From NCBI GenBank assembly GCA_041583135.1, contig JBFHGJ010000001.1, positions 41,337-105,336 of the forward strand: 64,000 nucleotides of DNA, given 5' to 3'. This DNA is from Alteromonadaceae bacterium (lineage in GTDB: Bacteria; Pseudomonadota; Gammaproteobacteria; Enterobacterales; Alteromonadaceae). Made by a program: the position numbers and the translations under genes. This document shows, one piece after another, positions 7,047 to 56,162 of this stretch (the first letter of the stretch is position 1; each line of letters starts with the position of its first letter). The notes under the pieces were generated by a model, which did no database searches, had not been told where the DNA came from, and saw only the letters and a list, made by a program, of their open reading frames with translations.

Positions 7047-7049
7047 AAT

Positions 7050-7065
7050 TGGTCTGCTAATTGCT
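7050..7065 (+). promoter_or_regulatory. sigma54 promoter for the flgB operon
   Basis: TGGTCT-GCTAA-TTGCT with GG-N10-GC spacing, 37 nt upstream of the flgB ATG. Confidence 0.55.
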
Positions 7066-7101
7066 TAAGTTTATTCACGTTGATATTCGTGAGTAAAAAT
7101 T

Positions 7102-7500
7102 ATGGCGATCAATTTTGATAAAGCATTTGGTGTGCACCAACACACCATGCTCATCCGCTCGAAACGAGCGGAAGTTCTCTCAAGCAATATTGCCAATGCC
7201 GATACGCCAAACTATAAGGCCAAGGACATTGATTTTGCGCAAATGATGAAAAAAGCCCAAGGCCAGCAAAGTCAGGGGCAGATGTACATCACTCACGAAA
7301 GACATTTCAAAATACCATCGGTAGGTCAATCCGACACCCTTTATACCGTGCCCAATCAGCCGGATACCGGGGATGGCAATACTGTTGACGTTCAGCTGGA
7401 AAGAAACAAGTTCATCGAAAACTCAATGGAATATCAAGCCAGTGTCAACTTTCTTGGTGGCAAGATCCGTGGCCTTAAAAAAGCATTATCAGGACAGTAA
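7102..7500 (+). CDS. flgB: flagellar proximal rod protein FlgB
   Basis: Rod-protein N-terminal motif ([16 protein letters not shown]), size and gene order. Confidence 0.93.
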
Positions 7501-10212: not shown

Positions 10213-10228
10213 TGGCACTCATATTGCT
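10213..10228 (+). promoter_or_regulatory. sigma54 promoter for flgF-flgJ
   Basis: Near-consensus TGGCAC-TCATA-TTGCT, about 50 nt upstream of the flgF ATG. Confidence 0.7.
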
Positions 10229-30722: not shown

Positions 30723-30765
30723 AGCCGCAATGTGGCCTGTTATCGCATTGTCTTAGTAGAGAAAT

Positions 30766-30791
30766 AAAGGGCTGGAAATTCCAGCCCTTTT
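30766..30791. terminator. bidirectional terminator between the convergent maf and fusion genes
   Basis: AAAGGGCTGGAA/TTCCAGCCCTTT palindrome with an A-run upstream and a T-run downstream. Confidence 0.8.
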
Positions 30792-30899
30792 GGTGTCAAA
30801 ACAAGAGTTTCTACTTAACTCGCCTAAAGCAAACAAATTTGGGGCAGTTAGCGATGAAAATAGCTGTGCTCTACGGCCCTTCCTTACGTGAAGCTCAGG

Positions 30900-33038: not shown

Positions 33039-33119
33039 GAGCAATTAAAGTCCAAAACAGGTTTCTACTGATACTTGATTTAAGTGAAGCAAACAATGGG
33101 CCGATTTGCTAATGACTTT

Positions 33120-34172: not shown

Positions 34173-35646
34173 GTTGTTTACTCCCTCGTTGATACCAGTT
34201 ATCGCCGATTGGCGTAAAACCGGCCTTGGCAAACGCTTTAATTGAAGCACTATTGTGCGCATCGATATAGGCTAGCAAGGTTTTTTCTTGGTGAAGCTCA
34301 GCCAGCAGCTTGAGTGCCAAAGGGCCAAGTCCTTGACCCAAGCCCTGGGGCGCGATAGCAATGGATACTTCGTGTCCGTTTGTTGTTGGGTTGAGCCGGA
34401 CAAAGCCGAGCGGTTGTTTGTCTTTTACCAGTAGATAAAAATCAATTTCTGGCGATTGCATGACTTTGCCGAACCAGCGTTGATGGTCGCTGAGCTTCGG
34501 TGGCTTGGGATCGCGAGCAAAGCGCCTTGTTTCAGGGGCTTGCTGCCACTGATATAACACCATCATATCCGGCCAGTCTACGCGCTCAAGATGATACCGT
34601 GAAGCATTGCGCAACTGCTGTAGTCGTTGCGTCAGTTCGCTGATACCGCTACCGTCACAAACTTTGGCGGCTTGTTTGGATAAGCTTTGCAATGGTTCTT
34701 TCGCGTCTACAAATGCCGTGAGCATCGGTAGCAGATGAGTATCAACCTGCGCTGCTGTCATGGTGCCGATGGCAGCCCCACTGTCGGCGGCTGCCTGAAC
34801 AATATGGGCTTGATTGTCTGCCGCGCAGATCAGAATATTCGGCAGGCCCAAACAGCAGCGTTCCAACATGGACGTTCCGGCGGCTGCGATAGCCATGTCG
34901 GCTTGGGTGATCACCTCTGCCATATTCTCGACATTCACTTTCAAGCTGATCCCACTTCGCTTTGCGACATATTCTCTTATGCGGTCTAAATGTTTGGCTT
35001 GAGCACTTAAAACCACCGTCACTTGAAATCGTTTTGTGTCGAGCTGGGCCAAAACCTGTTCAGTCAGATTGTCAGGATCGGTCGCGCCCAAACTCACCAA
35101 AATATGTTTCACTTCTTTGGTTTGCTCACGCTTGGCCAATGCTTGTTGTCGTTGTTCAATAAATTGCTGACGCAATAGAGCATATTTGGCCCCGACAATC
35201 AGCTGCTGGCATCTGTCATCAAGCCATGGTTGATAGTGGGCTTGGTTTCGAGCTAACGATTGGTCAAATAGCAGATCGCAGTGATAGGGGCGGTTGGCCA
35301 AATCGTCGATGACCATCAGGTGTTGGCACAGTGGGGCCATTTGCTTGTGCCATTTTGCATCTAGCTGGTAGTGATCAACCACAATCAAGTCGGGATATAG
35401 CGCTTCGAGCACTGCGCGCGAGGCAATGGCGTCAGCTTGCTGACAAAAGGCTTGGTGACCGGGAATAATCGATACGCCAAAGCCTTGGTGTAAAATCAGC
35501 TCGACCATATCTCCCGGCGCTTTGCGGCAAATAAAATGAATATAGCAACCCTGTTCGCGCAGCGCTTCGGCGAGTGTGAGGCAGCGGTAAATATGGCCGC
35601 CACCAATGTCTTTTGAGCCGTCGGCGCGAAAGACGATAACCGCCAT
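34162..35646 (-). CDS. pseG: bifunctional PseG (UDP-sugar hydrolase) and GNAT N-acetyltransferase (PseH-like) fusion
   Basis: N-terminus VFRADGSKDIGGGHIYRCLTLAEAL is PseG-like. The C-terminal ~150 aa is GNAT-like (GLGQGLGPLALKLL). Confidence 0.8.
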   Translation of the reverse strand: MAVIVFRADGSKDIGGGHIYRCLTLAEALREQGCYIHFICRKAPGDMVELILHQGFGVSIIPGHQAFCQQADAIASRAVLEALYPDLIVVDHYQLDAKWHKQMAPLCQHLMVIDDLANRPYHCDLLFDQSLARNQAHYQPWLDDRCQQLIVGAKYALLRQQFIEQRQQALAKREQTKEVKHILVSLGATDPDNLTEQVLAQLDTKRFQVTVVLSAQAKHLDRIREYVAKRSGISLKVNVENMAEVITQADMAIAAAGTSMLERCCLGLPNILICAADNQAHIVQAAADSGAAIGTMTAAQVDTHLLPMLTAFVDAKEPLQSLSKQAAKVCDGSGISELTQRLQQLRNASRYHLERVDWPDMMVLYQWQQAPETRRFARDPKPPKLSDHQRWFGKVMQSPEIDFYLLVKDKQPLGFVRLNPTTNGHEVSIAIAPQGLGQGLGPLALKLLAELHQEKTLLAYIDAHNSASIKAFAKAGFTPIGDNWYQRGSKQHES

Positions 35647-36938
35647 CAGCGCACCTTAAAAATTGGCTTGAGCACAGGACAGCGCAGCTGTTTATCCAAC
35701 GTGCCGTTATCGTCATAGTGCTTAATTTGCGCCAAAATATCGCCATAGGCGTCGAGCAGCATGTCGATATGCTTGGGTTGATGGGCAAAGTTGAGGTTGT
35801 GGCTGCCATTGGTGATGATTCCTCGGGCAAACAATTCCTGTAACCAATAGGTTTTTATGGTCCAAGCGTCAAAGTGACGTCCGTCTTTACCGACCAGAAA
35901 GCTCCAACTTGGATGCCCTGCCGTTGCGTAGAGGTGATTGATGCCTAAACTGTCAATCAGCTTGTTTAAGCGATTGAGCAGGTCCTCGCCAAGCTGATGA
36001 ATGTGACCTAGCGCATTTTCACTACGGATTTTTTCGATGCAGGCTTTGCTGGCGGCCAAGGCCATGGTATCGCCACCAAAGGTGCCGGAAAAAAAGATCT
36101 CTGTCATCAAGGCCATTACGTCGGCTCTGCCGACCACTGCGGATATCGGATAGCCGTTTGCCATGCCCTTGCCAAAAGTCGCCAGATCTGGGGTGACATC
36201 AAACAATTGCTGGGCACCGCCGAGGCTAAAACGAAAGCCGGTAATGGTTTCGTCGAAGATCAACAGCGCGCCGTGCTGATGGGTCAAATCTTTTACTTTT
36301 TGCAAAAAATCTGCTGTGGGATAGGACAAATTCATCGGCTCTAAAATCACCGCAGCAAACTCGCCTTGGTGGCTTTCAAGTACGGTTTTTAACGAGTCGA
36401 TATCGTTATAGCCAAACGGATGGGTCAATGCCTTGGTTGCTCCGGGGACGCCCAAATTGCGAGAGGTGCTGCCGATATACCAATCTTGCCAGCCATGATA
36501 GCCGCACACCGCGACGTGATCTTTGCCGGTATAGGCGCGGGCTAAGCGGATAGCCGCGCTGGTGGCATCTGAGCCGTTTTTACCAAAACGTACCATTTCA
36601 GCGCAGGGAATAAGCTCACACAGAAGCTCTGCCACTTCAAATTCAAGGCGGTGGGGCAGCGAGAAAATAGCACCCGCCTGAACCTGTTCAATAACCGCTT
36701 GGTTGACGTCTTTGTCGCCATAGCCGAGGCTGATACAAAGCAATGCGCTCATAAAATCGAGGTAGCGATTGCCATCGACGTCAATCAATTCGCAACCCTC
36801 GCCACGCTCGGCGAAATAGGGGCTGACGCCTTGCGGCAACGACAACATGCTTTTGGAAAAGGTTTGCGAGCCTAGAGGGACGGTTTTAAGCGCTTGTTGT
36901 AAAAACTGCTGCGAGCGGCTGAAATTATCGATTGTCAT
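35646..36938 (-). CDS. class-III PLP aminotransferase (glutamate-1-semialdehyde aminomutase-like)
   Basis: 430 aa with GSDATSAAIRLAR, DETITGFR and TFGKGMANG (PLP lysine) motifs. Confidence 0.8.
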   Translation of the reverse strand: MTIDNFSRSQQFLQQALKTVPLGSQTFSKSMLSLPQGVSPYFAERGEGCELIDVDGNRYLDFMSALLCISLGYGDKDVNQAVIEQVQAGAIFSLPHRLEFEVAELLCELIPCAEMVRFGKNGSDATSAAIRLARAYTGKDHVAVCGYHGWQDWYIGSTSRNLGVPGATKALTHPFGYNDIDSLKTVLESHQGEFAAVILEPMNLSYPTADFLQKVKDLTHQHGALLIFDETITGFRFSLGGAQQLFDVTPDLATFGKGMANGYPISAVVGRADVMALMTEIFFSGTFGGDTMALAASKACIEKIRSENALGHIHQLGEDLLNRLNKLIDSLGINHLYATAGHPSWSFLVGKDGRHFDAWTIKTYWLQELFARGIITNGSHNLNFAHQPKHIDMLLDAYGDILAQIKHYDDNGTLDKQLRCPVLKPIFKVR

Positions 36939-36944
36939 GGCTTT

Positions 36945-37658
36945 TTACTGTACCAAATGTTGGTTAACACAAAACAGCGCAGGCTGTTGCTGATAAAGCG
37001 CCATTACCTGATGATAATCAAATGCCGGGTCGGTAGGGTAGAGGCGACTGTATATGGCTTCGACTAGGGCAAAATCTTCCGGGTTATCGACTGTCCAGCG
37101 CTGCTGTGATAAGTCTTGTTCACAGCAAATCTCGGCCATGGCAAATTGCTCGGCATGATCGCGAATGTATTTGGTCACATGTTCTAGCTGATCTTGCGCG
37201 GTGGCTTGTTGCGCCATTAATTGTAAGGTGTTCATGGTCATCACTTCCACATCCAATCCATCGGGATAGGTGCGAGGAAACGCGTTGGTTGTGTAGTCGA
37301 AGTCACCGTCAAGGTGGCGCTCTATTACCTTATCGATAACGCCCGGGTCTATCAGTGGGCAGTCTGCGGTGAGCCTAACGACATGGCTAGGATGGTATGG
37401 TTTGGCACATTGATAAAAGCGCGATAACACATTGTCCAAGTCGCCACGAAAACAAGGTTGCTGAAACTGCTCGCAAGCGCTGGCAATGGCATCGTCGCTG
37501 GATTCTACACTGGTCGCTACGACAATCTTATCGATTCGCCGTGCCGTTTTGATGCGTTCGATTTGACGAAACATCATTGGCTTGCCCAGCAGCGGCTTCA
37601 ACACCTTGCCCGGTAGCCGATTGGACGACATCCTTGCTTGCAATATCGCAAGGATCAT
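36945..37658 (-). CDS. SpsF-like cytidylyltransferase (probable CMP-nonulosonate synthetase role)
   Basis: ILQARMSSNRLPGKVLKPL N-terminus as in SpsF-type cytidylyltransferases. Start taken at the ATG in an ATGA overlap with the upstream gene. Confidence 0.7.
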   Translation of the reverse strand: MILAILQARMSSNRLPGKVLKPLLGKPMMFRQIERIKTARRIDKIVVATSVESSDDAIASACEQFQQPCFRGDLDNVLSRFYQCAKPYHPSHVVRLTADCPLIDPGVIDKVIERHLDGDFDYTTNAFPRTYPDGLDVEVMTMNTLQLMAQQATAQDQLEHVTKYIRDHAEQFAMAEICCEQDLSQQRWTVDNPEDFALVEAIYSRLYPTDPAFDYHQVMALYQQQPALFCVNQHLVQ

Positions 37659-38521
37659 TTGCGCTTGCCCTCCGGCCACAAAAATGGACTGATCAACCCT
37701 TCTTCATGACAACTTAACTCGCTGGCGTCGAACGTTACTTTACCGGCCTGCTCATAAGCTTCGAGCACTTCTATCAGTTGCGCCTCAGAACAGACGCCAA
37801 ACACCAAGCGGTCCACCTCATCGTGGCGATGGGCGATAGTCAGTGCCGCTGCCAGCCGTGATAGACCGCTTTTTTTACACAAGCTGTCGAGCTTGTCAAA
37901 CAATGGCTTATACGGATGAAAGTAGGGGGGCAATTCGCCAAAGGGCATTAATAAGAGTCCTTGGAGGAAAATAGAACGGGCATGGACCTCAACGCCTTTG
38001 CCTTTAAGCCATTCGATGCAGCCGGTTGCAAAAAAGCGTTGATCGAACAGATTCATCGGCAATTGCACCAGATCCAGCGGAAACCGATCTTCAAGTTCAA
38101 AGGTGGGTTTGGTGTGATAGACCGAGATGCCGATTTTATCGACCAAGCCTTGCTGCTTTAAGGCGCTTAATTCGGCATAACTTTGTTCGGTCAAATCGGC
38201 GCTGTTGTGCAACATTAGGCCGTCGATTTTATCCATCTTAAGCCGGGCTAACGAGTGTTTGAGCGCTTCTGATATGCTGTAGTCATAGCTCTCTAAATCC
38301 GGCACCTTATCGACCAGCTTGAACTTGAGCTGATTTTTTGCCAGCAGCTCGCCAATGACGGTCTCAGAACTGCCGTAAACGCTACCGGTATCGAGCAGAT
38401 CAATGCCATGACTTGCCGCCGTAATGAGAATTTTCTCGACTTCTTCGACACTCACCTGACCTTTGGTATTGGAAATACCATAGTCCATGCCGAATTGAAC
38501 AGTGCCCAATGCCAATTTCAT
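37655..38521 (-). CDS. aldo/keto reductase
   Basis: MKLALGTVQFGMDYG N-terminus and AKR-like length. ATG 38521 behind GAGGA is preferred over TTG 38536. Confidence 0.75.
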   Translation of the reverse strand: MKLALGTVQFGMDYGISNTKGQVSVEEVEKILITAASHGIDLLDTGSVYGSSETVIGELLAKNQLKFKLVDKVPDLESYDYSISEALKHSLARLKMDKIDGLMLHNSADLTEQSYAELSALKQQGLVDKIGISVYHTKPTFELEDRFPLDLVQLPMNLFDQRFFATGCIEWLKGKGVEVHARSIFLQGLLLMPFGELPPYFHPYKPLFDKLDSLCKKSGLSRLAAALTIAHRHDEVDRLVFGVCSEAQLIEVLEAYEQAGKVTFDASELSCHEEGLISPFLWPEGKRK

Positions 38522-38532
38522 TTTAGCCGTCC

Positions 38533-40784
<2,252 letters not shown>

Positions 40785-42085: not shown

Positions 42086-42162
42086 TTAAACTTGCCTTAT
42101 AGTCTGATTTGCATATCATTAACAAAATATCCTTATTTCTCTCAACAAGTTAAGGCAGATTG

Positions 42163-43632
42163 ATGGTGGCTGAATCGGAAAAGATCCTGATCGTCGATGA
42201 ACAACACACCCGAGCGACAGCGCTCAAAACCGTTCTAGAGTTTATAGGTCAAAAGTGTGTCATTGTCGCGGCAGATGCGTTGCAGCAAACGCTTAGTGAC
42301 AATGCGGCGAAACGCTTTTCGATTTTGGTTATTGGTGCCCTACCTGAAGGTAACTATAGTGACGTGATCAAATCAGTGCCGTTTTTGCCGGTGCTGGTGG
42401 TTGGCGATACCCTAAAGCACTTGCTTGAAGTGCCCAATGTGATTGCCTTGATGAGCTATCCGTTTCATTATGGCGAGCTGACCATTCAGCTTAGTGATTG
42501 TCAGGAATACAAAAGGCTTATTCCGACCAATCGCGGCAAGGGGATGCAATCGCATTTTCAAGGGTTTGTCGGCAACTCAGATGCCATGCGTCAGGTGCGC
42601 TTTTTGATTGAACAGGTGGCTTGCTCTGCGGCCAATGTGCTGATTTTAGGTGAGTCAGGTACCGGTAAAGAAGTGGTGGCCAACAATATTCATTTATTGT
42701 CAGAGCGTAAAGATGCGCCATTTGTGCCGGTCAACTGTGGTGCCATTCCGGCGGATCTGCTGGAAAGTGAGTTGTTTGGTCATGAAAAGGGGGCTTTTAC
42801 CGGCGCCATTTCGGCCCGTAAAGGCCGTTTTGAGCTGGCACAAGGCGGTACACTGTTCTTAGATGAAATTGGTGACATGCCGCTGTTGATGCAGGTGAAG
42901 TTGTTGCGGGTATTGCAAGAGCGCTCATTTGAGCGAGTTGGTGGTACCAAGCCGATTAAATGCGATGTTCGGGTTATTGCGGCGACTCACCGTAATCTAG
43001 AGACCATGATTGAAGCGGGCACTTTCCGTGAAGATCTATTTTATCGCTTAAATGTTTTCCCGATTGAAACCCCTGCACTTAGAGAACGGCCTGAAGACTT
43101 ACCTTTGCTGATTGGCGAGCTTATCAAACGGGTTGAGGCAGAGTGTGGTCAGGACGTCAAATTCTCTGAAAGGGCACTGGAGTCGTTAAAAGCCAGCCCA
43201 TGGTCGGGCAACGTCCGTGAGTTGTCGAACTTGGTCGAACGGATGATCATCATGTATCCGGGCCAAGTGGTCGATATCACTGAGCTGCCGAAGAAATACC
43301 AAGCCTTTGAGGTTGAGGCGTACGTACCCGAATACCCTGAAGAACTGCAAGAGCGTGATGCGATTTACGAAATGTTTTCTGAAGGCGACAGTCAAGAAGA
43401 CTTTCAAGACGCCTATGAAGAAGATGTTGCTAGCGGCGGTGGAATGTGGGGCATGTTGCCGCCAGAGGGGATCAATCTTAAAGAGTATATGGCCGAAATT
43501 GAGATCAGCCTGATCACTCAAGCGCTGGAATATAGTGATTACGTTGTCGCTAGGGCTGCGGAGATCTTGGCGGTGCGGCGTACGACCTTGGTCGAAAAGA
43601 TGAAAAAATACGGCCTTGGTAAAGAAGACTAA
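42163..43632 (+). CDS. flrA: sigma54-dependent flagellar master regulator FlrA/FleQ
   Basis: FleQ-type N-domain, AAA+ motifs GESGTGKE and GAFTGA, C-terminal HTH. Confidence 0.9.
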   Translation: MVAESEKILIVDEQHTRATALKTVLEFIGQKCVIVAADALQQTLSDNAAKRFSILVIGALPEGNYSDVIKSVPFLPVLVVGDTLKHLLEVPNVIALMSYPFHYGELTIQLSDCQEYKRLIPTNRGKGMQSHFQGFVGNSDAMRQVRFLIEQVACSAANVLILGESGTGKEVVANNIHLLSERKDAPFVPVNCGAIPADLLESELFGHEKGAFTGAISARKGRFELAQGGTLFLDEIGDMPLLMQVKLLRVLQERSFERVGGTKPIKCDVRVIAATHRNLETMIEAGTFREDLFYRLNVFPIETPALRERPEDLPLLIGELIKRVEAECGQDVKFSERALESLKASPWSGNVRELSNLVERMIIMYPGQVVDITELPKKYQAFEVEAYVPEYPEELQERDAIYEMFSEGDSQEDFQDAYEEDVASGGGMWGMLPPEGINLKEYMAEIEISLITQALEYSDYVVARAAEILAVRRTTLVEKMKKYGLGKED

Positions 43633-43639
43633 ATATATA

Positions 43640-43659
43640 CCCGAGGTGCTTGCCTCGGG
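43640..43659 (+). terminator. hairpin after flrA (no T-tract)
   Basis: CCCGAGG-tgcttg-CCTCGGG. Confidence 0.4.
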
Positions 43660-43814
43660 CCTGCTTCAAATCCCCGATGGCGTGGTACGCCTGTACAAAC
43701 TTTTGACCTTTGGTGTCAGATCACGAGTGTTTTTCTCCCGCCAAAATACCTTGTCAAAATATCGACACCGATAAAAATCCTGCCTAACTAATTGAAAAAT
43801 AACGAATAAAAATC

Positions 43815-43830
43815 TGGCACGCATATTGAA
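43815..43830 (+). promoter_or_regulatory. sigma54 promoter of flrBC
   Basis: TGGCAC-GCATA-TTGAA, about 30 nt upstream of the flrB start. Confidence 0.6.
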
Positions 43831-43857
43831 TGGTCACAGCCATACTAGCAACTTTGA

Positions 43858-45000
43858 GTGAAAGTTATGGCATCAGCACAAGTTCTCAAACGCCCTCAGG
43901 GTGATGTGGCACAACTGCCACCGATCAGTCTCGTTCCAGCGCTCGAGCAAGAAGCCTACCCCGGCGAATTGGCCGAGTTACGTGCAAAGGCGTCTCGTAT
44001 GAGTCATGTGGTTGAGACTTTGCCGGCCGGTGTCATTATCTTGGACAACAAAGGGGTGGTCGCTGAAGTCAATCAAATGGCCATCGACATGCTGGGCGAG
44101 CCGCTTGAAGGTGAAAAGTGGCGCGATGTGATCAAACGGGCTTTTAGTCCAAAAAACGACGATGGTCATGAAGTGTCATTGAGTGACGGTCGTCGTATCA
44201 AGTTGTCGATAAGTTCGCTCGACCCGCACCCCGGGCAATTGATCTTAATGACCGATTTGACCGAAACTCGCGCACTGCAAGAGCGGTTGGCACATATGAA
44301 TCGCCTTTCGGCGCTGGGCAAAATGGTTGCCTCTTTGGCGCATCAGGTGCGTACACCCTTATCTGCGGCGATGCTTTACGCTGCCAATATTGCCAATGAG
44401 CGCCTATCTAGCGAGGCGCGTTCAAAGTTCGGTAGTAAGCTCAATTCACGTTTGCAAGATTTGGAGCAACAAGTCAACAACATGCTGTTGTTTGCCAAAA
44501 GTGGCGGCGCACAGGTTGTTGAAAAGCTGTCGTTGCAACAATTGCTCAGTGAAGTAAAGGCAGGAGCCGAGGCTATGGTGGTTCAGGCCAAAGGTGAGAT
44601 CAAAGTTAACTTGCCGGAGCCGGACATTCTCATTCGCGGCAACAAAAGTGCCCTTGCCAGTGCCATTCAAAACCTAATTCACAATGCGCTTGAACTGATC
44701 GGCCATGGTGCCGAGATCTGCATAGAAGCGGCGCGTGACAAGCGTGATGACAATCAAGTCATTATCAGCGTCAGCGACAATGGCCCGGGTATCGACGAGC
44801 CATTGGCCAAACGCATTTTTGAACCTTTTTATACGACTAAACAATCTGGGACCGGGTTAGGCCTTGCCGTCGTGCAAGCCATTGCAACAGCCCATCATGG
44901 TAGCGTTGAGTTGGACATGAGCGTCAGTAAAGGCGCCAAGTTCAATATTTGCCTGCCAGTGTTACCAGCGAATAAGCAACAGGAGTCTGATCATGTCTAA
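43858..45000 (+). CDS. flrB: flagellar sensor histidine kinase FlrB/FleS
   Basis: PAS-like N-domain, H-box LAHQVRTPLS, HATPase motifs (DNGPGI, GTGLGL). The start could instead be ATG 43867. Confidence 0.88.
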   Translation: MKVMASAQVLKRPQGDVAQLPPISLVPALEQEAYPGELAELRAKASRMSHVVETLPAGVIILDNKGVVAEVNQMAIDMLGEPLEGEKWRDVIKRAFSPKNDDGHEVSLSDGRRIKLSISSLDPHPGQLILMTDLTETRALQERLAHMNRLSALGKMVASLAHQVRTPLSAAMLYAANIANERLSSEARSKFGSKLNSRLQDLEQQVNNMLLFAKSGGAQVVEKLSLQQLLSEVKAGAEAMVVQAKGEIKVNLPEPDILIRGNKSALASAIQNLIHNALELIGHGAEICIEAARDKRDDNQVIISVSDNGPGIDEPLAKRIFEPFYTTKQSGTGLGLAVVQAIATAHHGSVELDMSVSKGAKFNICLPVLPANKQQESDHV

Positions 45001-46357
45001 ATCTAAATTATTGGTTGTTGAAGATGATGCCGGATTGCGCGAAGCGCTGATTGATACCTTAGAGATCAGCGGCTATACCTGTGTTGCGGCAGACAACGCC
45101 GAACGCGCCATTATGCTACTCAAACAACACAAAGTGGACATGGTGATCTCCGATGTTCAGATGGGTGAGATCAGCGGCTTAGAGCTGTTGCGTTCAATCA
45201 AGCTCAATTATCCGACGCTGCCGGTGTTGATGATGACTGCCTATGCCACCATTGACGATGCCGTACAGGCTATGCGTGAAGGGGCGGTGGATTATCTATC
45301 CAAACCATTTGCGCCTGAGGTATTGATGAACTTGGTTAGCAAATATGTACCGGCCAATAAAGTCGAGTCGCACCATCCGGTGGTGGCCGATGCCAAAAGT
45401 CTGCAATTGATTAAGCTGGCCGGTAAAGTGGCCAAATCCGATGCGACCGTCATGGTGCTAGGCCCGAGCGGCAGTGGTAAAGAAGTCTTGTCAAAATACA
45501 TTCACGACCAGTCTAAAGCCTCCGACGGTCCGTTTGTCGCCATTAACTGTGCGGCCATTCCTGACAATATGCTTGAGGCCACCTTATTCGGCTATGAAAA
45601 AGGCGCCTTTACCGGCGCAATCAATGCCTGTCCGGGTAAGTTTGAACAAGCGCAAAACGGCACCATCTTACTCGATGAAATTACCGAGATGGACCTAAGT
45701 CTTCAAGCGAAACTGCTCAGGGTATTGCAAGAGCGAGAAGTCGAGCGTTTAGGGAGCCGTAAAACCGTCAAACTCAATGTGCGAGTTATCGCCACCAGTA
45801 ACCGAGATTTACGCGAGGCCGTAAAAGAAGGCAAATTTAGAGAAGACTTGTTCTATCGCCTCAATGTTTTTCCATTGACTTGGCCTGCCTTGAGTGAGCG
45901 TAGAAATGACATTGTCCCTTTGGCTACGCATTTGATTGACCGTTACTGTCAACAATCTGGCGAAGCGGCGCCGCAGCTCAGCGCTTCGGCACAGGCCAAA
46001 CTGCAAAATCACAGCTGGCCGGGTAATGTTCGTGAGTTGGATAATGTCATCCAGCGTGCCATGATCATCAAGTCAGATGACAAGATTGACAGCGAAGACA
46101 TCTTGTTGGAAAACATGGAAGCGGTGGCTGAGCCGACTGAAATTGCCGACATCACCTTAGATCCGACATCGACTTCGACCATCGATCCGATGTTTAAGAA
46201 CGAGCTTAAAAATCAAGAGCACAAGATCATACTCGACACCTTGGCGTCCTGTAACGGTTCACGCAAAGGCGTATCGGAAAAACTCGGCATCAGCCCGCGC
46301 ACCTTGCGCTACAAAATTGCCAAAATGAAAGAGCAGGGCATTGAAATCCCCGCTTAA
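44993..46357 (+). CDS. flrC: sigma54-dependent response regulator FlrC/FleR
   Basis: Receiver domain, AAA+ motifs GPSGSGKE and GAFTGA, C-terminal HTH. Confidence 0.9.
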   Translation: MSKSKLLVVEDDAGLREALIDTLEISGYTCVAADNAERAIMLLKQHKVDMVISDVQMGEISGLELLRSIKLNYPTLPVLMMTAYATIDDAVQAMREGAVDYLSKPFAPEVLMNLVSKYVPANKVESHHPVVADAKSLQLIKLAGKVAKSDATVMVLGPSGSGKEVLSKYIHDQSKASDGPFVAINCAAIPDNMLEATLFGYEKGAFTGAINACPGKFEQAQNGTILLDEITEMDLSLQAKLLRVLQEREVERLGSRKTVKLNVRVIATSNRDLREAVKEGKFREDLFYRLNVFPLTWPALSERRNDIVPLATHLIDRYCQQSGEAAPQLSASAQAKLQNHSWPGNVRELDNVIQRAMIIKSDDKIDSEDILLENMEAVAEPTEIADITLDPTSTSTIDPMFKNELKNQEHKIILDTLASCNGSRKGVSEKLGISPRTLRYKIAKMKEQGIEIPA

Positions 46358-46576: not shown

Positions 46577-46592
46577 TGGCATACTCCCTGCA
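46577..46592 (+). promoter_or_regulatory. sigma54 promoter of the fliE operon
   Basis: TGGCAT-ACTCC-CTGCA with GG-N10-GC spacing, about 55 nt upstream of fliE. Confidence 0.65.
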
Positions 46593-47016: not shown

Positions 47017-48738
47017 GTGGCTGAAGCAAGTGCATCAACAGATATGGTAGTCGCCAACGACGGGGCGGCCGACCCTTCTTCACAAGAACAAAAATCCGGC
47101 TTTATGGGCGGCTTTGGCGGCATCGATGTGCTGCGTCAGGTCACGCTCATTTTGGCGTTGGTGATCTGTATCGGTATCGCTATCTCTATCTTTTTATGGG
47201 CCAAAGAGCCGGATATGCGTCCATTGCAGGCGGCTAAAACCGACCAAGAGCTGATCCAAACGCTCGACTTTTTGGCGCTGAACAATATTCAGTATCGCCT
47301 GGATGGCAAAACCATTCATATCCCAGAAGAAGACTACGAAAACGTCAAGTTGTTGATGATCCGTCAAGGCATCGAGCAAGGTGGCGGCGATGGCTTAGGC
47401 AGCGGTCATGACATCATCATGCAAGACCAAGGTTTTGGTGTCAGCCAGCGTATGGAGATGGCACGTCTTAAGCTGTCGAAAGAAAATCAGATTGCCCGTA
47501 CTTTAGAAAACCTCAACAACGTAACCAAGGCCAAAGTCTTATTGGCCATTCCTAAAGAGCAGATCTTTGCCCGCAAGGCCAAACAACCGTCTGCCACCGT
47601 CGTACTGACCATCAAGCGCGGTCGCGTTTTAAGCTCAGAAGAAGTGGATTCGATTGTCGATATTACCGCCTCTGCCGTGCAGGGGATGGAGCCGAGCCGT
47701 GTTACAGTTACTGATCAGAGCGGTCGTCTATTGAATTCCGGTTCACAAAATTCGATGTCTGCCCGTGCTCGCAAAGAATATGAAATCGAGCTTAAGCGTG
47801 AACAAGAGTACATCAATAAAATCGACAGTATTCTTATTCCTGTCATTGGCTTAGGAAATTATACTGCACAGGTTGATGTGTCGATGGACTTCAGCCGGGT
47901 TGAAGAAACGCAAAAAAGCTATGACCCGGATATGCAGGCCACTCGCTCAGAAAACCTTATTGAAGACAACAATGTCGGTGGTATTGCCGCAGGTGTGCCG
48001 GGGGCGCTATCAAACAAGCCGCCACTCAATTCCAATATTCCAGAGACCGTCGGCACCGACAGCAGCAGTGAAAGTGTTGTGCCCGGCAGCACTCACAAGC
48101 AGACTACCCGCAACTATGAGTTGGATACCACAGTACGTCATAAATCTTCGCAAGTCGGTGTTATTCAGCGTTTAACTGTGTCGGTTGCACTGGATTATCA
48201 ACAACAGGAAGACGCCGAAGGCAATGTTACCCAAGTGCCTCGTACCGAAGCCGAATTGATGAACATTCGTCGCTTGTTGCAAGGCTCTATTGGCTTTGAT
48301 CTACACCGAGGCGATACAGTTGAAGTCGTGGCTATTCCATTCCAGAAGGAAAAACCGGCACCAGCTATCGAATTACCGCTTTGGCAGCAGCCTTGGTTTA
48401 TGAAAATGTTCCGTTTGGCCTTGGCCGCCCTCATCATCATCGTACTGATTTGGGTTGTGATGAAACCAATGCTGAAGAAACTGATTTATCCTGAGGATAC
48501 GCATGACGACTTCGAAGAAGATGCCTTCAGCAGCGGTCTTGATCTAGGCGACGATACGCTGGATATGCTGAGCAACGAGTTTGACGCCGGTGCGGTTGGC
48601 TTCTCACCTGACGGTACGCTACAATTGCCAGACCTACATGGCAATGAAGACTTGCTCAAAGCGGTTCGAGCGCTGGTAGCCAATGAGCCTGAGTTGTCTT
48701 CACAAGTGGTGAAAGCCTGGTTGAGCGAAGATGAGTGA
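47017..48738 (+). CDS. fliF: flagellar MS-ring protein FliF
   Basis: 573 aa with two TM segments, gene order. Confidence 0.92.
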   Translation: MAEASASTDMVVANDGAADPSSQEQKSGFMGGFGGIDVLRQVTLILALVICIGIAISIFLWAKEPDMRPLQAAKTDQELIQTLDFLALNNIQYRLDGKTIHIPEEDYENVKLLMIRQGIEQGGGDGLGSGHDIIMQDQGFGVSQRMEMARLKLSKENQIARTLENLNNVTKAKVLLAIPKEQIFARKAKQPSATVVLTIKRGRVLSSEEVDSIVDITASAVQGMEPSRVTVTDQSGRLLNSGSQNSMSARARKEYEIELKREQEYINKIDSILIPVIGLGNYTAQVDVSMDFSRVEETQKSYDPDMQATRSENLIEDNNVGGIAAGVPGALSNKPPLNSNIPETVGTDSSSESVVPGSTHKQTTRNYELDTTVRHKSSQVGVIQRLTVSVALDYQQQEDAEGNVTQVPRTEAELMNIRRLLQGSIGFDLHRGDTVEVVAIPFQKEKPAPAIELPLWQQPWFMKMFRLALAALIIIVLIWVVMKPMLKKLIYPEDTHDDFEEDAFSSGLDLGDDTLDMLSNEFDAGAVGFSPDGTLQLPDLHGNEDLLKAVRALVANEPELSSQVVKAWLSEDE

Positions 48739-49783
48739 TGTTGACCTTGACATCGACCTGTCCCCCTCGGAGGGGGGCTTCGATGTCAATAAGTTAGATG
48801 GCGTAGAAAAAGCCGCCATCTTACTGTTGAGTTTGTCCGAGGAGGACGCTGCACAAATACTCAAGCACCTTGAACCTAAGCAGGTGCAAAAAGTGGGGAT
48901 GGTGATGGCGGGGGTAGATGACCTCAACCAATCGAAAATCGCCGCTGTACACCGCCAATTTATTGACCAGATCCAAAACTTCAGCACCATCGGCTTCCAA
49001 TCTGAAAGCTTCATCAAAAATGCCCTTACCGCAGCCCTTGGCGAAGAAAAAGCCACCAACCTGATTGAACAAATCGTACTGGGTAGTGGCGCCAAAGGAT
49101 TGGACTCTTTGAAGTGGATGGACTCTAAGCAGGTGGCCAACATTATTCGCAACGAGCATCCGCAGATACAGACCATCGTTCTATCTTACTTGGAGCCGGA
49201 GCAAAGCGCCGAGATCCTCGGACAGTTTGCCGAGAAAGTCAGACTCGATTTGATGATGCGTATCGCCAACTTAGAAGAAGTACAACCTGCCGCTTTGCAG
49301 GAACTCAATGAGATCATGGAGAAACAGTTTGCCGGCCAGGCGGGAGCGCAAGCGGCGAAAATGGGCGGGCTAAAAGCGGCCGCCGACATCATGAACTATC
49401 TCGATACCAATATCGAAGGTCAGTTGATGGATTCGATTCGCGAGCACGACGAAGAATTGTCCCAGCAGATCCAAGACTTGATGTTCGTCTTTGAAAACTT
49501 ACTCGACATTGAAGATAGGGGCATTCAAACCATTTTACGTGAAGTGCAGCAAGATGTGCTGATGCGGGCAATTAAAGGTGCCGACGACGGGCTCAAAGAC
49601 AAGATCATGAACAACATGTCAAAACGTGCCGCCGATATGATGCGCGATGATCTCGAAGCGATGCCGCCGGTACGGGTCAGTGAAGTCGAAGCGGCACAAA
49701 AAGAAATTCTTTCAGTTGCCAGACGATTGGCCGATGCCGGAGAGATCATGCTAGGCGGTGGCGGCGGTGAAGAATTCCTGTAA
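48731..49783 (+). CDS. fliG: flagellar motor switch protein FliG
   Basis: 350 aa, MFVFENL motif, gene order. Confidence 0.94.
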   Translation: MSDVDLDIDLSPSEGGFDVNKLDGVEKAAILLLSLSEEDAAQILKHLEPKQVQKVGMVMAGVDDLNQSKIAAVHRQFIDQIQNFSTIGFQSESFIKNALTAALGEEKATNLIEQIVLGSGAKGLDSLKWMDSKQVANIIRNEHPQIQTIVLSYLEPEQSAEILGQFAEKVRLDLMMRIANLEEVQPAALQELNEIMEKQFAGQAGAQAAKMGGLKAAADIMNYLDTNIEGQLMDSIREHDEELSQQIQDLMFVFENLLDIEDRGIQTILREVQQDVLMRAIKGADDGLKDKIMNNMSKRAADMMRDDLEAMPPVRVSEVEAAQKEILSVARRLADAGEIMLGGGGGEEFL

Positions 49784-49845
49784 AATAAAAGTTTGAAGGT
49801 GATGGCTGTTGCCGTTACTGTGAACCCGTTTGCCAAGCCGCTTAT

Positions 49846-52073: not shown

Positions 52074-52514
52074 ATGGCGATACAACAGTTGATCATGGTG
52101 GCCAAATTAGAGCAGGAAAAAGAAGACAAACTTGCGCGCGAGTTTCAACAGGCCCAGCAAAACCTTGAGCAGAACAAACAGAAGATGCAGGGCATCGAAA
52201 GCTATCGTATGGAATATTTGACACAAATGCGTAACGAAGCCAATCAAGGGATGAAGATCAACAGTTATGGTCACTACCAACAGTTTATCTCCAAGCTCGA
52301 AGAAGCCGTCAAACAACAATCTGAGGTGATCCGTACTGCCTTTAAAGTGGTAAATCAACGACGCACCTTATGGCTTGAACAGCAACAAAAGCGCAAGGCG
52401 GTTGAAATGCTGATAGAGAAACATCGAGCCGCCGAACAGGCCAAAGCCGACCGCGCCGAACAGGCCCTGCTTGATGAAGTGGCGACGCAAAAGTTTTTTA
52501 GAACGCGAAAGTAA
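52074..52514 (+). CDS. fliJ: flagellar export chaperone FliJ
   Basis: 146-aa coiled-coil protein after fliI. Confidence 0.88.
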   Translation: MAIQQLIMVAKLEQEKEDKLAREFQQAQQNLEQNKQKMQGIESYRMEYLTQMRNEANQGMKINSYGHYQQFISKLEEAVKQQSEVIRTAFKVVNQRRTLWLEQQQKRKAVEMLIEKHRAAEQAKADRAEQALLDEVATQKFFRTRK

Positions 52515-52520
52515 AAATAA

Positions 52521-52562
52521 CCAACACAACAAGCAACATTGACTTTGCTCAGGTTGTGTTGG
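52521..52562 (+). other. 10-bp hairpin immediately after fliJ
   Basis: CCAACACAAC...GTTGTGTTGG with a 22-nt loop, followed by the palindrome TTGGCAAtTTGCCAA. Confidence 0.7.
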
Positions 52563-52629
52563 CAATTTGCCAAATCAACGAGGGTGTACCAAACTCTTTG
52601 TTTTACCGTCCCTGTTTGGAGACTATTTC

Positions 52630-53274
52630 ATGAACATCAGAAGTTGCTTGCTGACCGCGCTGTTGTTTGCCTCACTGAATGTATTTGCCCAACAGTCGCT
52701 CACGCAATCCTCTAGCCAATTGACAAAAAACCTTCAACTGCCTGAACTCAATATACCGACTAAGCTTGTCTTAGATAACTCGCAGCTCTCTGAGGTCAAT
52801 TCGTTTAAGTTACAGCTTCAGAACAATACGCTTGAGCAATATATTGAGGCAAACCGGTTGGCACAAATTAAAAAGGTTAGCTTCACAGACGAGGAAACGC
52901 AGTTATTCAAAAAGTTTTTGCCGCCCAAAACGCCTATTGAGAAGCTGCCTGAGATCAAATATTACTGGAAAAAGCTCAAGGAGGTTTGTCTTGCGTGTGC
53001 TGATGTCAGCGGCAGCCCACAGGCTGGAGATTTTCAGATCTCAGATTTCTATCGGCCTAGCGCTGGCGCAAGTGGTACTGGAAACATTGCCGCTCAGACT
53101 GATAAAGACGAGGCATCTGAGTGTGAAGTCCCCGGCTGGCTTGTGCAGCAGAAACTATTGCTGATAGGTATCGCGTTAAAGCAAGGGGTTGAACTACCAA
53201 CGATCGAAAAATACGCATGTGACAAAGGCTATATTACAGAGCTTATAGAGAGAATGAGTAAGGTTGAATCATGA
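52630..53274 (+). CDS. hypothetical secreted protein (214 aa, Sec signal peptide, 4 Cys in the mature part)
   Basis: ATG behind GGAGA, signal peptide MNIRSCLLTALLFASLNVFA/QQ. I recognise no family. Confidence 0.7.
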   Translation: MNIRSCLLTALLFASLNVFAQQSLTQSSSQLTKNLQLPELNIPTKLVLDNSQLSEVNSFKLQLQNNTLEQYIEANRLAQIKKVSFTDEETQLFKKFLPPKTPIEKLPEIKYYWKKLKEVCLACADVSGSPQAGDFQISDFYRPSAGASGTGNIAAQTDKDEASECEVPGWLVQQKLLLIGIALKQGVELPTIEKYACDKGYITELIERMSKVES

Positions 53275-53789
53275 AAACAATAGCATGGATCGTTCTACTA
53301 CTGTGCAGCAGCACGTTTAGTTGGGCCGCTGCCGAGAATGCGACAACACTTGAGCAAACCTATGTGCTTGAACGGCAAAAAGCAAGTATTGCCAGTGTTC
53401 AACGGGCTGAGAGCTTTGAACAGCTGCGCTTGGCCAATCGTGAAAAAGAAGTGTTGCACCGGCAAAAAACCTTTGAATTTCAATACATTCAAAGCTGGGT
53501 CATTTTCATCATGGTGATTGTGCTGGTGATGGGCGGTTTTGTCATGGCCTATCAGCAATTTAGAAAAGACATCAAAACGCCAGAACAAGAGGGCAATGGC
53601 GACTCACAGCAGAACAAGGATAACACCACCTTAGAGCTATCCACCTCGGGTATCAAGATTAGCTCATCTGTCATTGGTCTGATTGTTTTGGCCATGTCCT
53701 TTGCCTTCTTTTATATGTATATTACCCATGTATACAAAATAAACGACTTGTCTTTGCAGCCACAACCGCAGCAAGAAAAGCAAAAGTAG
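53271..53789 (+). CDS. hypothetical membrane protein (172 aa, signal/anchor plus two TM helices)
   Basis: ATGA overlap with the upstream ORF. Hydrophobic helices WVIFIMVIVLVMGGFVMAY and VIGLIVLAMSFAFFYMYI, and a Q/P-rich tail. Confidence 0.7.
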   Translation: MKTIAWIVLLLCSSTFSWAAAENATTLEQTYVLERQKASIASVQRAESFEQLRLANREKEVLHRQKTFEFQYIQSWVIFIMVIVLVMGGFVMAYQQFRKDIKTPEQEGNGDSQQNKDNTTLELSTSGIKISSSVIGLIVLAMSFAFFYMYITHVYKINDLSLQPQPQQEKQK

Positions 53790-53800
53790 CGGGTTCCCTC

Positions 53801-53847
53801 GTTGAGTTTGTGATGAAAGGCCACATCGGATAAATCACAAACTCAAC
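53801..53847 (+). other. perfect 14-bp hairpin after the inserted gene pair
   Basis: GTTGAGTTTGTGAT...ATCACAAACTCAAC with a 19-nt loop. Confidence 0.75.
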
Positions 53848-53895
53848 AATACCCGTAGCAACCGTTGTTTTTCATCCTTCAGTTATGCGTCACAT

Positions 53896-53911
53896 TGGCC
53901 TAAATCTTGAA
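53896..53911 (+). promoter_or_regulatory. sigma54-like promoter of the fliK operon
   Basis: TGGCCT-AAATC-TTGAA, with the same TTGAA -12 variant as the flrBC promoter, about 45 nt upstream of ATG 53955. Confidence 0.45.
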
Positions 53912-53954
53912 TAACTCTTTGTCAAATCGCAGTCGATTGATTGGAGTAAATCCT

Positions 53955-56162
53955 ATGCAGCACCAGTTAAGAATTATGCCAGAGGCCATTCCAGAGGTCC
54001 CAAGAGATAATAAAGTTGATAAATTTCAGTCGTTTGACGACTCTGGCAGAGAAAAATTCGATACCGTATACCGTCAGCAGTTTGGCGCACAAGACAATGA
54101 GCCCGGCACCGGGGCGATGGATAAAGCGGCAAAAATTGACGCCGCCCGTAGCCGCAATGAAGCCGGACATGAGGCAGACGAAAAAATTGACGGCAACGCC
54201 GACGATGCCGAACAGCCGGTCAAAGTGTGTGGCAAGTCGCCTGAGGCCCCGGTAAAGGTTTGCGGTAAATCGCCAAGTACAACAGGCGCTGCCATCGATG
54301 GTGAAAAGGCCGCTGAGGTTGCTGCTCAAACCGGCCAAAGCGATATTGCCGGGCGCGACAAAATTGACGGTAAGCTTGAACAGCTGCTGTTGTTGATGGA
54401 GCAGTCCAATCAAGTATTAAACGGTGGTCAAGGTATTGCCAAAGGCGAACCCAATGGCGCCGATAGTGAGCAAATGCTGCGTCAAAACAAGCTCTCTGCT
54501 GCCATTGAAGCGGCACTGGATAAAGGCAAAGAGGGCAAGTTTAATCTTGCCGCTTTACTGGAATCTTATGGGGATGGCGATAATAAAAAGCTTAACCTTG
54601 ACTCTGACGAAGGCAAACTGGTGGCCAAAGAGCTCAAGCAGATGCTGTTGGCAGACGGTGCACAGGGCACGAAATCACTAAATCTTTCTGGTGCCGATAA
54701 AGCCGCACTGTTAAGTGAATTAAAGGCGCTCACCTCACAATCCGGTGGCGGTAAATTTGACTTGTCGCAATTTGAAACCCCAGGGATCAATGGTACGCCA
54801 AATGCGCCAAGCAGTGATGAGCTAAGTGCCGAACCACTCAAACCGCAGATGGATCTGGCACAAATTCACAAATCGCTTGGTAATAGCGGTCAAACCCCAC
54901 CAATTCGTCCTTCAACCGACGTCAGTGATGAAACGGCTACGCAAACCAAAGGTGGCAGTGATGGGGTAAGTGCTGAGGTTAAAGCAAACCTTGCCGCACA
55001 AATGCAAAGCATGGGCAAAACCAAGCCTGAAGGGAGTGAGGCGGCGGCAAATGACAAAGCGGAGCCTAAGCTAACCGAGCAATTGGCGCAAACGCAGGCT
55101 AGCGAGGGTGACAAGTTTGATTTGGAACAATATCAAACGCCGGACATCAAACCAAAACTCGACGGTCAAGCGTCAGCGGATGACAATGTTCAGGCTCAAG
55201 TGACCAAACCGATGGAAAATACGGGCAAAAGCAGTCCTTTTGAGCACAACCTGACGGCGCAAAATACCACTGGGCAAAACGCGGCTCAATCAGGTGCCGA
55301 GCAGACCAAACCAATGGAAAAGGCCGATCCGTTGACGGCGGCGTTGCAGGGCAATGCCAGCCAGCGTGACAACAAGAATATTTTAGGCACCAGCGATAAA
55401 GTCAAGTCTAATGGCGCGACAACCATTACTAAGGACATTCAAATCTCAGAGCAAGCCGGTGCTGCTGGCGACGCTGAAAAACGGATGCAGTCCGATGAAA
55501 GTGAATTGATGGCCGAGACCAACCTTGGCGAACAAAAAGCGGTGGTAGATGAGAAAATGACACGCTTAAATCCCAAAGAGCTGGGACTTGGCGCTGCAAT
55601 AGCCGATAAGCCGCAAGGCGCCGTTGGCGGCACGAGTCAGTTTGCTGAGAGCTTAAATGCCATTCATTCGGCCAATCAAAGTGCCGATAAGTTTGCAGCT
55701 AAGACCCCAGAACCACTTGCTCAGCCGCTTAATATCGTTAAACCCGATGTGGCCGCAGGCAGTATGAAAGAACGCTTGGTGGTGATGATGAGTAAAGGCA
55801 TTCAAAGCGCCGATATTCGCCTAGACCCGGCGGAGCTGGGACAGATGCAGGTGAAAATGAGCATCGACAATGATGTTACTACGGTCAATTTTGTGGTGCA
55901 AAACCAACAGGCAAAAGAGCTTTTAGAGCAGGCTATGCCTAAACTGAAAGATATGTTGGCTGAACAAGGCATCAATTTAGGTGAGGGGACGGTACATCAA
56001 GACGATAAAGGTCAACAGCAATGGCAGGCCAGTCAAAATAATGACGGTCGCGGTCAGGGTGGCAGTCATGGCGAACACGCTGAGGCAGAAGTTGACCCTG
56101 TAGTGGCACAACAGCTAAAAATTGCTGGTGGCGCTTTAGGCGGTATCGACTTTTTTGCCTGA
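53955..56162 (+). CDS. fliK: flagellar hook-length control protein FliK
   Basis: Long low-complexity N-region and a FliK C-terminal domain (IRLDPAELGQMQVKMSIDNDVTTVNFVVQNQQAKELLEQ). Start set at the ATG behind GGAG. Confidence 0.88.
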   Translation: MQHQLRIMPEAIPEVPRDNKVDKFQSFDDSGREKFDTVYRQQFGAQDNEPGTGAMDKAAKIDAARSRNEAGHEADEKIDGNADDAEQPVKVCGKSPEAPVKVCGKSPSTTGAAIDGEKAAEVAAQTGQSDIAGRDKIDGKLEQLLLLMEQSNQVLNGGQGIAKGEPNGADSEQMLRQNKLSAAIEAALDKGKEGKFNLAALLESYGDGDNKKLNLDSDEGKLVAKELKQMLLADGAQGTKSLNLSGADKAALLSELKALTSQSGGGKFDLSQFETPGINGTPNAPSSDELSAEPLKPQMDLAQIHKSLGNSGQTPPIRPSTDVSDETATQTKGGSDGVSAEVKANLAAQMQSMGKTKPEGSEAAANDKAEPKLTEQLAQTQASEGDKFDLEQYQTPDIKPKLDGQASADDNVQAQVTKPMENTGKSSPFEHNLTAQNTTGQNAAQSGAEQTKPMEKADPLTAALQGNASQRDNKNILGTSDKVKSNGATTITKDIQISEQAGAAGDAEKRMQSDESELMAETNLGEQKAVVDEKMTRLNPKELGLGAAIADKPQGAVGGTSQFAESLNAIHSANQSADKFAAKTPEPLAQPLNIVKPDVAAGSMKERLVVMMSKGIQSADIRLDPAELGQMQVKMSIDNDVTTVNFVVQNQQAKELLEQAMPKLKDMLAEQGINLGEGTVHQDDKGQQQWQASQNNDGRGQGGSHGEHAEAEVDPVVAQQLKIAGGALGGIDFFA

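Follow-up and report, generated by a model that had tools for sequence, protein, structure and literature searches.

A coupled pair of envelope-protein genes, probably a passenger, between fliJ and fliK of an Alteromonadaceae bacterium

The fliJ–fliK junction

The window considered here, a stretch of 64,000 nucleotides (nt) from contig JBFHGJ010000001.1 of an Alteromonadaceae bacterium (assembly GCA_041583135.1), contains a Vibrio-type polar flagellar region in which three regulatory genes are followed by fliE, fliF, fliG, fliH, fliI and fliJ, then by two open reading frames (ORFs), ORF-A and ORF-B, and then by fliK, fliL, fliM and fliN. The two ORFs had been singled out in a sequence-only reading of this DNA as non-canonical genes between fliJ and fliK, and the flanks of that placement have now been confirmed with the Pfam FliJ and Flg_hook models, Pfam also confirming the identity of FliI; the start of fliK matches the gene call in a twin contig, L015, which begins at the equivalent ATG. 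The features of the junction and of the comparison loci are collected in Table 1.

Table 1. Features of the window and of the loci compared with it (window coordinates unless a locus is named; aa, amino acids; bp, base pairs)
Feature	Position	Strand	Description
ORF-A	52630-53274	+	214 aa from the ATG at 52630; GGAGA 7 nt upstream
ORF-B	53271-53789	+	172 aa; ATGA overlap with ORF-A
Inserted segment	~52515-53890	+	~1.37 kb; ends good to a few bases; absent from relatives with an intact junction
Hairpin after the fliJ stop	52515-52568	+	arms 52515-52530 / 52553-52568; 16 nt, 88% complementary
Hairpin after ORF-B	53801-53847	+	perfect 14-bp arms 53801-53814 / 53834-53847, 100% complementary
fliK sigma-54-type promoter	53896-53910	+	TGGCCTAAATCTTGA; left intact by the insertion
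fliE-fliJ sigma-54-type promoter candidate	46577-46591	+	TGGCATACTCCCTGC, read off the sequence; intact
fliJ	52074-52514	+	Pfam FliJ E=1e-30; TIGR02473 E=7e-28; final gene of the fliE-fliJ operon, left flank of the insert
fliK	53955-56162	+	Pfam Flg_hook E=5.5e-24; opens the next operon, right flank of the insert
FleQ/FlrA-like activator	42160-43632		followed by an FlrB-like kinase and an FlrC-like activator; the three regulators span 42160-46357
Relatives L017/L018			FliJ 87% identical; fliK directly after fliJ, 68-nt gap
Relatives L019/L020			FliJ 82% identical; fliK directly after fliJ, 222-nt gap
Relative L021			FliJ 75% identical; fliK directly after fliJ, 267-nt gap
Relative L016, ABC_membrane gene	6443-7240		FliJ 89% identical; gene follows fliJ (Pfam E=2.6e-14); contig ends inside the gene
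Cassette in L001	1529-4378		
Cassette in L004	158-3011		
Cassette in L006	930-4080		
Cassette in L010	1115-3968		
Cassette in L005	2-2622		rearranged

ORF-A, a predicted secreted protein with four invariant cysteines

ORF-A is predicted to be a secreted periplasmic protein. Its N-terminus, MNIRSCLLTALLFASLNVFA/QQ, resembles a Sec signal peptide when judged by eye, and a hydrophobic stretch followed by AQQ recurs among members of its family; in this respect, as in its length, its GGAGA ribosome-binding site and its four cysteines, the earlier description of the protein holds. A longer reading that starts with TTG at 52567 is an alternative to the ATG start. The cysteines of the mature part (C120, C123, C165 and C197) are all invariant across the family, as are P98, P168 and W170. 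The four cysteines belong to a C-terminal domain of about 115 aa that is conserved, the N-terminal half of the protein being variable.

Direct searches for relatives recovered ORF-A alone, both in a word-index search of 5.8 billion clusters and in an exhaustive phmmer/HMMER search of 1.84 billion representatives, which gave no other significant match. A profile of the proteins encoded in the partner position beside ORF-B homologues, built without the window, nevertheless matches the whole of ORF-A at E=3e-16, and an earlier profile of six such partners placed it at E=1e-11 among 727 window segments, the next best scoring 0.13. The ratio of nonsynonymous to synonymous substitution rates (dN/dS) is 0.28–0.47 in this family; between the window and its twin L015, in which both genes are intact, ORF-A shows three synonymous differences and one nonsynonymous difference. 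Codon adaptation in ORF-A is the minimum of the locus (0.61 versus 0.68–0.75), and the guanine plus cytosine (GC) contents of ORF-A and ORF-B (0.45, 0.44) are its two lowest values, a modest deviation that is suggestive.

Structural comparison of ORF-A yielded little. The single-sequence AlphaFold2 model is unusable at a predicted local distance difference test score (pLDDT) of 37, and a sequence profile search of the PDB with the family gave Spt4 as its best match, insignificant at E=0.21. Most members of the A family carry a CPxC motif, where ORF-A of the window has CLAC, and this led to a thioredoxin- or DsbA-like thiol oxidoreductase being considered; the candidate was rejected, hhalign comparison of the A-family profile giving a probability of 0.1% with E. 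coli TrxA and of 1.0% with DsbA, and no Pfam thioredoxin-clan match was found.

ORF-B, a predicted two-helix membrane protein

The description of ORF-B given earlier, with its ATGA overlap and with an N-terminal and two further hydrophobic segments, also stands, these segments being residues 3–21, 67–97 and 126–155. The predicted layout comprises a signal peptide or anchor, a periplasmic helical stalk of about 50 aa, a first transmembrane helix (TM1), a loop of about 30 aa, a second transmembrane helix (TM2) and a tail rich in glutamine and proline; the loop at residues 98–128, which bears lysine and arginine, would lie in the cytoplasm and the tail in the periplasm. The structural model (pLDDT 71) is essentially two helices, at residues 2–102 and 132–154, with a disordered stretch at 105–128. 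Foldseek comparison of this model with the PDB, a check that had been proposed with the first description, returned 0 matches, and a PDB sequence profile search with the family gave opsins or gp41, insignificant at E>0.1.

ORF-B has homologues in 11 clusters at 36–62% identity, with E values down to 4e-31. The motif around SGIKISSSVIGLIVLAMSFAFFYMY in the region of TM2 is nearly invariant among them, and the family has a dN/dS of 0.14–0.19. TM1 gives weak matches to models of two-TM effectors (Pfam Saf_2TM, E=0.016; PADLOC ‘Effector 2TM’, E=0.018), and the Alteromonas homologue described below has a weak SAVED_TM match (E=0.022); at E values of about 0.02 these may be taken as a hint only. For both proteins the Pfam, NCBIfam, PADLOC and PHROGs searches found nothing above threshold, although the same Pfam and NCBIfam searches clearly identify FliI, FliJ and FliK, and with the PDB searches likewise negative, the statement in the sequence-only reading that no family could be recognised is borne out.

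A conserved pair with homologues outside flagellar loci

In all 12 of the gammaproteobacterial-type loci for which upstream sequence is available, a homologue of ORF-A lies directly upstream of the ORF-B homologue, at gaps of −4 to +11 nt, these upstream partner genes encoding proteins of about 160–290 aa. The arrangement seen in the window is also present in the independent contig L015, which is 99.6% identical to it. Judged from this recurrence and from the substitution ratios, ORF-A and ORF-B are real genes that form a conserved pair, both under purifying selection.

The pair is rare, with matches in only 3 of 185,579 species genomes. In Alteromonas sp. KUL150 (locus L001), KUL150_06710, annotated as a hypothetical protein, is a homologue of ORF-B (43% identity, E=2e-20), and the 182-aa protein encoded upstream is a homologue of ORF-A at 22% identity with all four cysteines aligned. 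These two genes resemble ORF-A and ORF-B in order and in tight spacing; they differ from them in being part of a cassette of five genes, of which the other three encode two lipoproteins and a small cysteine-containing protein of about 55 aa, and in having no flagellar genes around them. The same cassette is found in the marine contigs L004, L006 and L010, and in rearranged form in L005, with the order small lipoprotein, lipoprotein of 341–435 aa, protein of about 55 aa, A and B, so that A and B are distal. The larger lipoprotein carries repeated GYKR-x-E motifs and the 55-aa protein has cysteines in L001, L004 and L010; no family assignment, and no significant PADLOC or PHROG match, was found for any cassette member. 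In L001 the cassette is followed by genes for a membrane protein, an integrase-like protein and a Transposase_mut protein. The remaining cassette genes were not found in the window.

In Pseudoalteromonas sp. S16_S37 and P. caenipelagi (L012 and L013) the pair occurs alone among ordinary chromosomal genes, encoding an AraC regulator, a methyltransferase, an isochorismatase, a GNAT protein and a phosphatase. That the two species share this locus, its flanking genes being conserved between them, points to vertical inheritance. A further 34 metagenomic loci, apparently mostly from soil to judge by their Ga sample identifiers, share only the two-helix domain of B, and no partner was detected with the A profile in these. 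The two loci read for their upstream gene, L047 (2415–3475) and L052 (6568–7799), encode a small secreted protein with four C-terminal cysteines directly upstream of the B-like gene, overlapping it by 4 nt in L047; the sequence of this protein is unrelated to A. In L039 (5487–6056) and L046 (9578–10378) a cysteine-containing N-terminal domain is part of the B-like protein itself. Such arrangements suggest a wider architecture of secreted cysteine-containing protein plus two-TM protein, for which there is no Pfam model.

The only flagellar contexts of the pair are those of the window and its twin. When the other loci with B-like genes were searched using tblastn with eleven flagellar proteins of the window (FlrC, FliE–FliN and FliK), flagellar genes were found near none of the 50, i.e. 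48 module loci totalling 217 kb and two megaplasmid loci. Searches of IMG/VR and of 50,697 phage records gave no match, and plasmid matches were limited to distant relatives of the two-helix domain on unannotated replicons of 1–2 Mb. The description of the pair as lineage-specific thus applies to its location and not to the genes, which occur also in Alteromonas, Pseudoalteromonas, and marine and soil metagenomes.

The junction in relatives and the boundaries of the insert

In Vibrio cholerae, fliK (VC2128) lies directly 3' of fliJ (VC2129) (PMC3439928). A first genome scan with FliJ gave no match; the nearest FliJ proteins come from Alteromonadaceae-like contigs, and the closest named ones from an Alteromonadaceae metagenome-assembled genome (70%) and Bowmanella (52–55%). 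Five of these contigs, L017–L021, have fliK directly after fliJ, and a sixth, L016, has a gene of the ABC-transporter type after fliJ. Neither A nor B was detected in any of the six with tblastn. Presence and absence of the pair across flagellar loci, which the earlier reading had proposed to profile, separates the window and its twin from these relatives, and the pair turns up elsewhere only outside flagellar loci.

Alignment of the junctions shows that the relatives share a conserved block upstream of fliK, consisting of TGGC-N7-TTGA/T, GATTGGAG and the ATG. In L017 this fliK promoter block starts 7 nt past the fliJ stop, and its counterpart in the window begins at about 53892, which delimits the inserted segment of Table 1. 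A single gain in the lineage of the window is the most parsimonious history of these junctions. As the insert sits in the gap between two operons with both flanking promoters intact, it disrupts nothing. An exact 10-nt direct repeat, AACTCTTTGT (52592–52601 and 53913–53922), and a 13-nt inverted repeat, complementary at 12 of 13 positions (52572–52584 and 53796–53808), lie near its ends; these are not taken as insertion scars because about one such match is estimated to arise by chance per 1.6 kb.

The ABC-transporter gene of L016 represents a third state of the junction, which gives this position the look of a recurrent breakpoint. A comparable situation is known from Pseudomonas: hsbA–hsbR–hptB separate fliJ from fliK, or else the flagellar cluster breaks at this point, and additional genes are described as favouring certain sites in these clusters, one of them next to fliJ (bioRxiv 10.1101/2021.08.29.457346). 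The adjacency of fliJ and fliK that the sequence-only reading took as established for Vibrio-, Pseudomonas- and Shewanella-type polar loci accordingly holds for V. cholerae and for relatives of this organism and fails for Pseudomonas. The hsbA–hsbR–hptB genes resemble ORF-A and ORF-B in being non-structural genes at the junction downstream of fliJ; they encode cytoplasmic signalling proteins, are genus-wide and are functionally tied to FliA/FlgM, whereas ORF-A and ORF-B are envelope proteins with no homology to them and are absent from close relatives.

The two closest relatives, L016 (3643–3798) and L017 (3636–3798), also have no fliG between fliF and fliH, where tblastn with FliG of the window was negative; L016 retains a 35-nt relic of the 3' end of fliG just upstream of fliH, 91% identical to 49755–49789 of the window, in which fliG is intact (48731–49783). 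Either fliG is encoded elsewhere in these relatives or their loci are decaying. With three states of the fliJ junction and fliG deleted in two relatives, the fliE–fliR locus appears structurally plastic in this clade.

Elsewhere in the flagellar region of the window, an island of flagellin-glycosylation type, mostly on the minus strand and flanked by flagellin and fliD genes, occupies 28566–40772; it contains genes for a Maf glycosyltransferase (28566–30722), a GSCFA-family protein, a GNAT/glycosyltransferase fusion and a DegT-type aminotransferase. A scan of the window for transfer RNA genes found none, and an Rfam scan was negative.

Hairpins, promoters and transcription

The pair is bracketed by two hairpins, as in the earlier description of two stems; both are real in the sense of being more stable than shuffled sequence, and each is unique within the window. 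The one after fliJ has a folding free energy of −20.3 kcal/mol (z −3.2 versus shuffles) and has no U-tract; as an intrinsic terminator it is probably inefficient, and read-through from fliE–fliJ into ORF-A and ORF-B is for that reason plausible. The one 3' of ORF-B reaches −27.8 kcal/mol (z −4.1; 0 of 200 shuffles as stable) and is followed by a small stem and a run of five U ending at about 53874, so that it is likely to act as a terminator or insulator before the fliK promoter.

That fliK has a sigma-54-like promoter of its own, as had been proposed, is consistent with both the enrichment of the motif and its conservation. The pattern TGGC-N7-TTG[AC] occurs at 24 sites in the window against 8.0 ± 2.5 expected, a three-fold excess that none of 100 shuffles reached, and no enrichment was seen with the wrong spacing of N8. 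The sites include those at 10213, 43815, about 46577 and 53896, several lying just 5' of plus-strand flagellar genes; a copy on the minus strand within ORF-A (52704–52718) is probably due to chance. Both the fliK site and the GATTGGAG ribosome-binding site are kept upstream of fliK in L017, L019 and L021. The candidate fliE promoter, TGGCATACTCCCTGC, resembles the RpoN site of V. cholerae fliE, TGGCATACAAATTGC (PMC3439928); in that species, separate RpoN-bound promoters serve fliEFGHIJ and fliK (PMC3439928), and the fliK gene of S. putrefaciens likewise starts from a sigma-54-like site of its own (10.1101/2022.07.21.500047). For ORF-A no convincing sigma-70 promoter was found in 52515–52629, the best candidate by eye agreeing at 8 of 12 positions, and a sigma-70 scan gave only two sites, both inside ORFs and at chance expectation.

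Origin and function of the pair

Considering these observations together, ORF-A and ORF-B most probably constitute a self-contained coupled module inserted between the fliE–fliJ operon and the operon that opens with fliK, a passenger and not a flagellar component, because this rare pair occurs elsewhere only outside flagellar loci. We regard it as a horizontally acquired, periplasm-facing membrane module, in keeping with the periplasmic plus inner-membrane description given to it earlier, and it most likely serves the envelope in some general accessory way that has nothing to do with motility. The insertion agrees with what is expected of accessory genes added at an operon boundary in its placement between transcription units with the downstream promoter intact, in its absence from close relatives and in its homology to genes in unrelated contexts; the mobility signature that such an insertion might carry was not seen. 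This is one of several points that count against the passenger reading: the insert of about 1.37 kb contains no mobility gene and shows neither a target-site duplication nor a significant terminal repeat. In addition, the GC and codon deviation of the two genes is modest, codon adaptation of ORF-B (0.70) being inside the range of the flagellar genes, and the junction comparison draws on metagenomic contigs, possibly chimeric, from five lineages only. The A–B interaction, the topology and the oligomerisation described below are likewise only what we infer, the structural model of ORF-A being unusable at pLDDT 37. Finally, position inside the array would, given read-through, bring co-expression with the MS-ring, C-ring and export genes, which keeps a recruited flagellar role in consideration.

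Such a role, with the pair recruited in this lineage as an accessory at the basal body or export gate and co-transcribed with fliE–fliJ, was one of two options offered in the sequence-only reading, and we now consider it unlikely. It would suit the position of the pair on the same strand within an array of flagellar operons, where a hairpin without a U-tract makes read-through plausible, the orientation of both proteins towards the envelope, in which basal-body accessories act, and the stability of the arrangement in two independent assemblies. The homologues, on the other hand, lie beside flagellar genes in 0 of 50 loci, relatives that are otherwise collinear (FliJ 75–87% identical) have nothing of the pair in this position, and the operon boundary is known to accept unrelated genes. 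Similarity to known flagellar families was not found either: ORF-A has no match, ORF-B has only sub-threshold matches driven by its transmembrane helices in Pfam and NCBIfam, and both stay below the curated cut-off of every family in these collections, flagellar ones included. Periplasmic and membrane proteins such as FlgT, FlgP, FlgO, MotX, MotY and FliL are encoded in or near the flagellar clusters of polar-flagellate gammaproteobacteria; these co-occur with flagellar genes across taxa, and the homologues of ORF-A and ORF-B do not. What was found is therefore homology to a mostly non-flagellar family, itself undescribed, which the sequence-only reading had named as the outcome that would speak against its flagellar proposal, and its other option, an unrelated cargo insertion, is the one favoured by homologues outside flagellar loci and by junctions without the insert in relatives.

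A conflict or defence module spread as island cargo, in which B would perturb membranes as a two-helix effector or pore and A would be its periplasmic regulator, trigger or partner, is also improbable. It draws on the repeated weak matches of TM1 to two-TM effector models, on a distribution that is patchy and rare, on the integrase-like gene and transposase that adjoin the cassette in L001, and on the extreme conservation of TM2, which would suit a functional pore or a packing helix. Two-TM effectors (PF18303 Saf_2TM; PADLOC ‘Effector 2TM’) are like ORF-B in being small and in having two transmembrane helices as their conserved core. ORF-B differs from them in its signal peptide and periplasmic helical stalk, in having no fused or linked SAVED or cyclase sensor, and in being partnered by a secreted cysteine-containing protein; assignment to these effectors was rejected, the PF18303 score being 15.5 bits against a cut-off of 29.5 and the PADLOC matches (E=0.018–0.022) spanning about 40 hydrophobic residues. 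Among the neighbours examined there is no sensor or signal-generating domain (SAVED, cyclase) linked to B, nor a nuclease or other defence partner, no cassette protein has a significant PADLOC or PHROG match, phage matches are absent, and the locus and flanks shared by two Pseudoalteromonas species suggest vertical inheritance. Phage lysis proteins (holin, spanin) were also considered and rejected, PHROG lysis families reaching only E=0.08–0.09 with no phage context. The remaining possibility, that the ORFs are chance frames or the decaying remains of genes within an intergenic region that has expanded, could appeal to the failure of ORF-A to find a significant relative in either of the very large collections searched. 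It is effectively refuted by the full-length recovery of ORF-A with four invariant cysteines through its syntenic partners, by the strength of the ORF-B homologies, by dN/dS well under 1 in both families, by a good ribosome-binding site with ATGA coupling, and by the intact twin copies with their mainly synonymous differences in ORF-A.

For the module as a passenger, the following mechanism can be proposed. ORF-A would leave the cytoplasm through Sec, and its four invariant cysteines would form two stabilising disulfides. ORF-B would be held in the inner membrane by two helices, with its helical N-terminal stalk in the periplasm and the loop between the helices in the cytoplasm, and may self-associate through its small-residue-rich, nearly invariant second helix; ORF-A would dock onto the periplasmic stalk, the two together making up a periplasm-facing membrane complex. 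Transcripts of the pair probably start at the sigma-54-dependent promoter of fliE and reach it by read-through past fliJ; a weak promoter of its own may add to this, and transcription would stop at the 14-bp hairpin and the U-run that follows, leaving fliK regulation undisturbed.

Implications

For flagellar biology the impact of this finding is small, as the junction was already known to tolerate extra genes, and location alone gives no ground for annotating ORF-A or ORF-B as flagellar. We give little credence to the idea that the flagellar regulon of this lineage has taken over a general envelope module, which now serves at the polar basal body, for example as a periplasmic or inner-membrane accessory to the MS ring or the export gate; if true, it would show a membrane complex of unrelated origin in the course of becoming a lineage-specific flagellar accessory. 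ORF-A illustrates how synteny combined with a profile can place in a family a protein that exhaustive sequence search fails to connect with any other. What is new is the pair itself, an undescribed coupling of a secreted four-cysteine protein with a membrane protein, neither of which has a relative in Pfam, NCBIfam or the PDB, together with a broader family of two-helix domains that reaches into soil bacteria.

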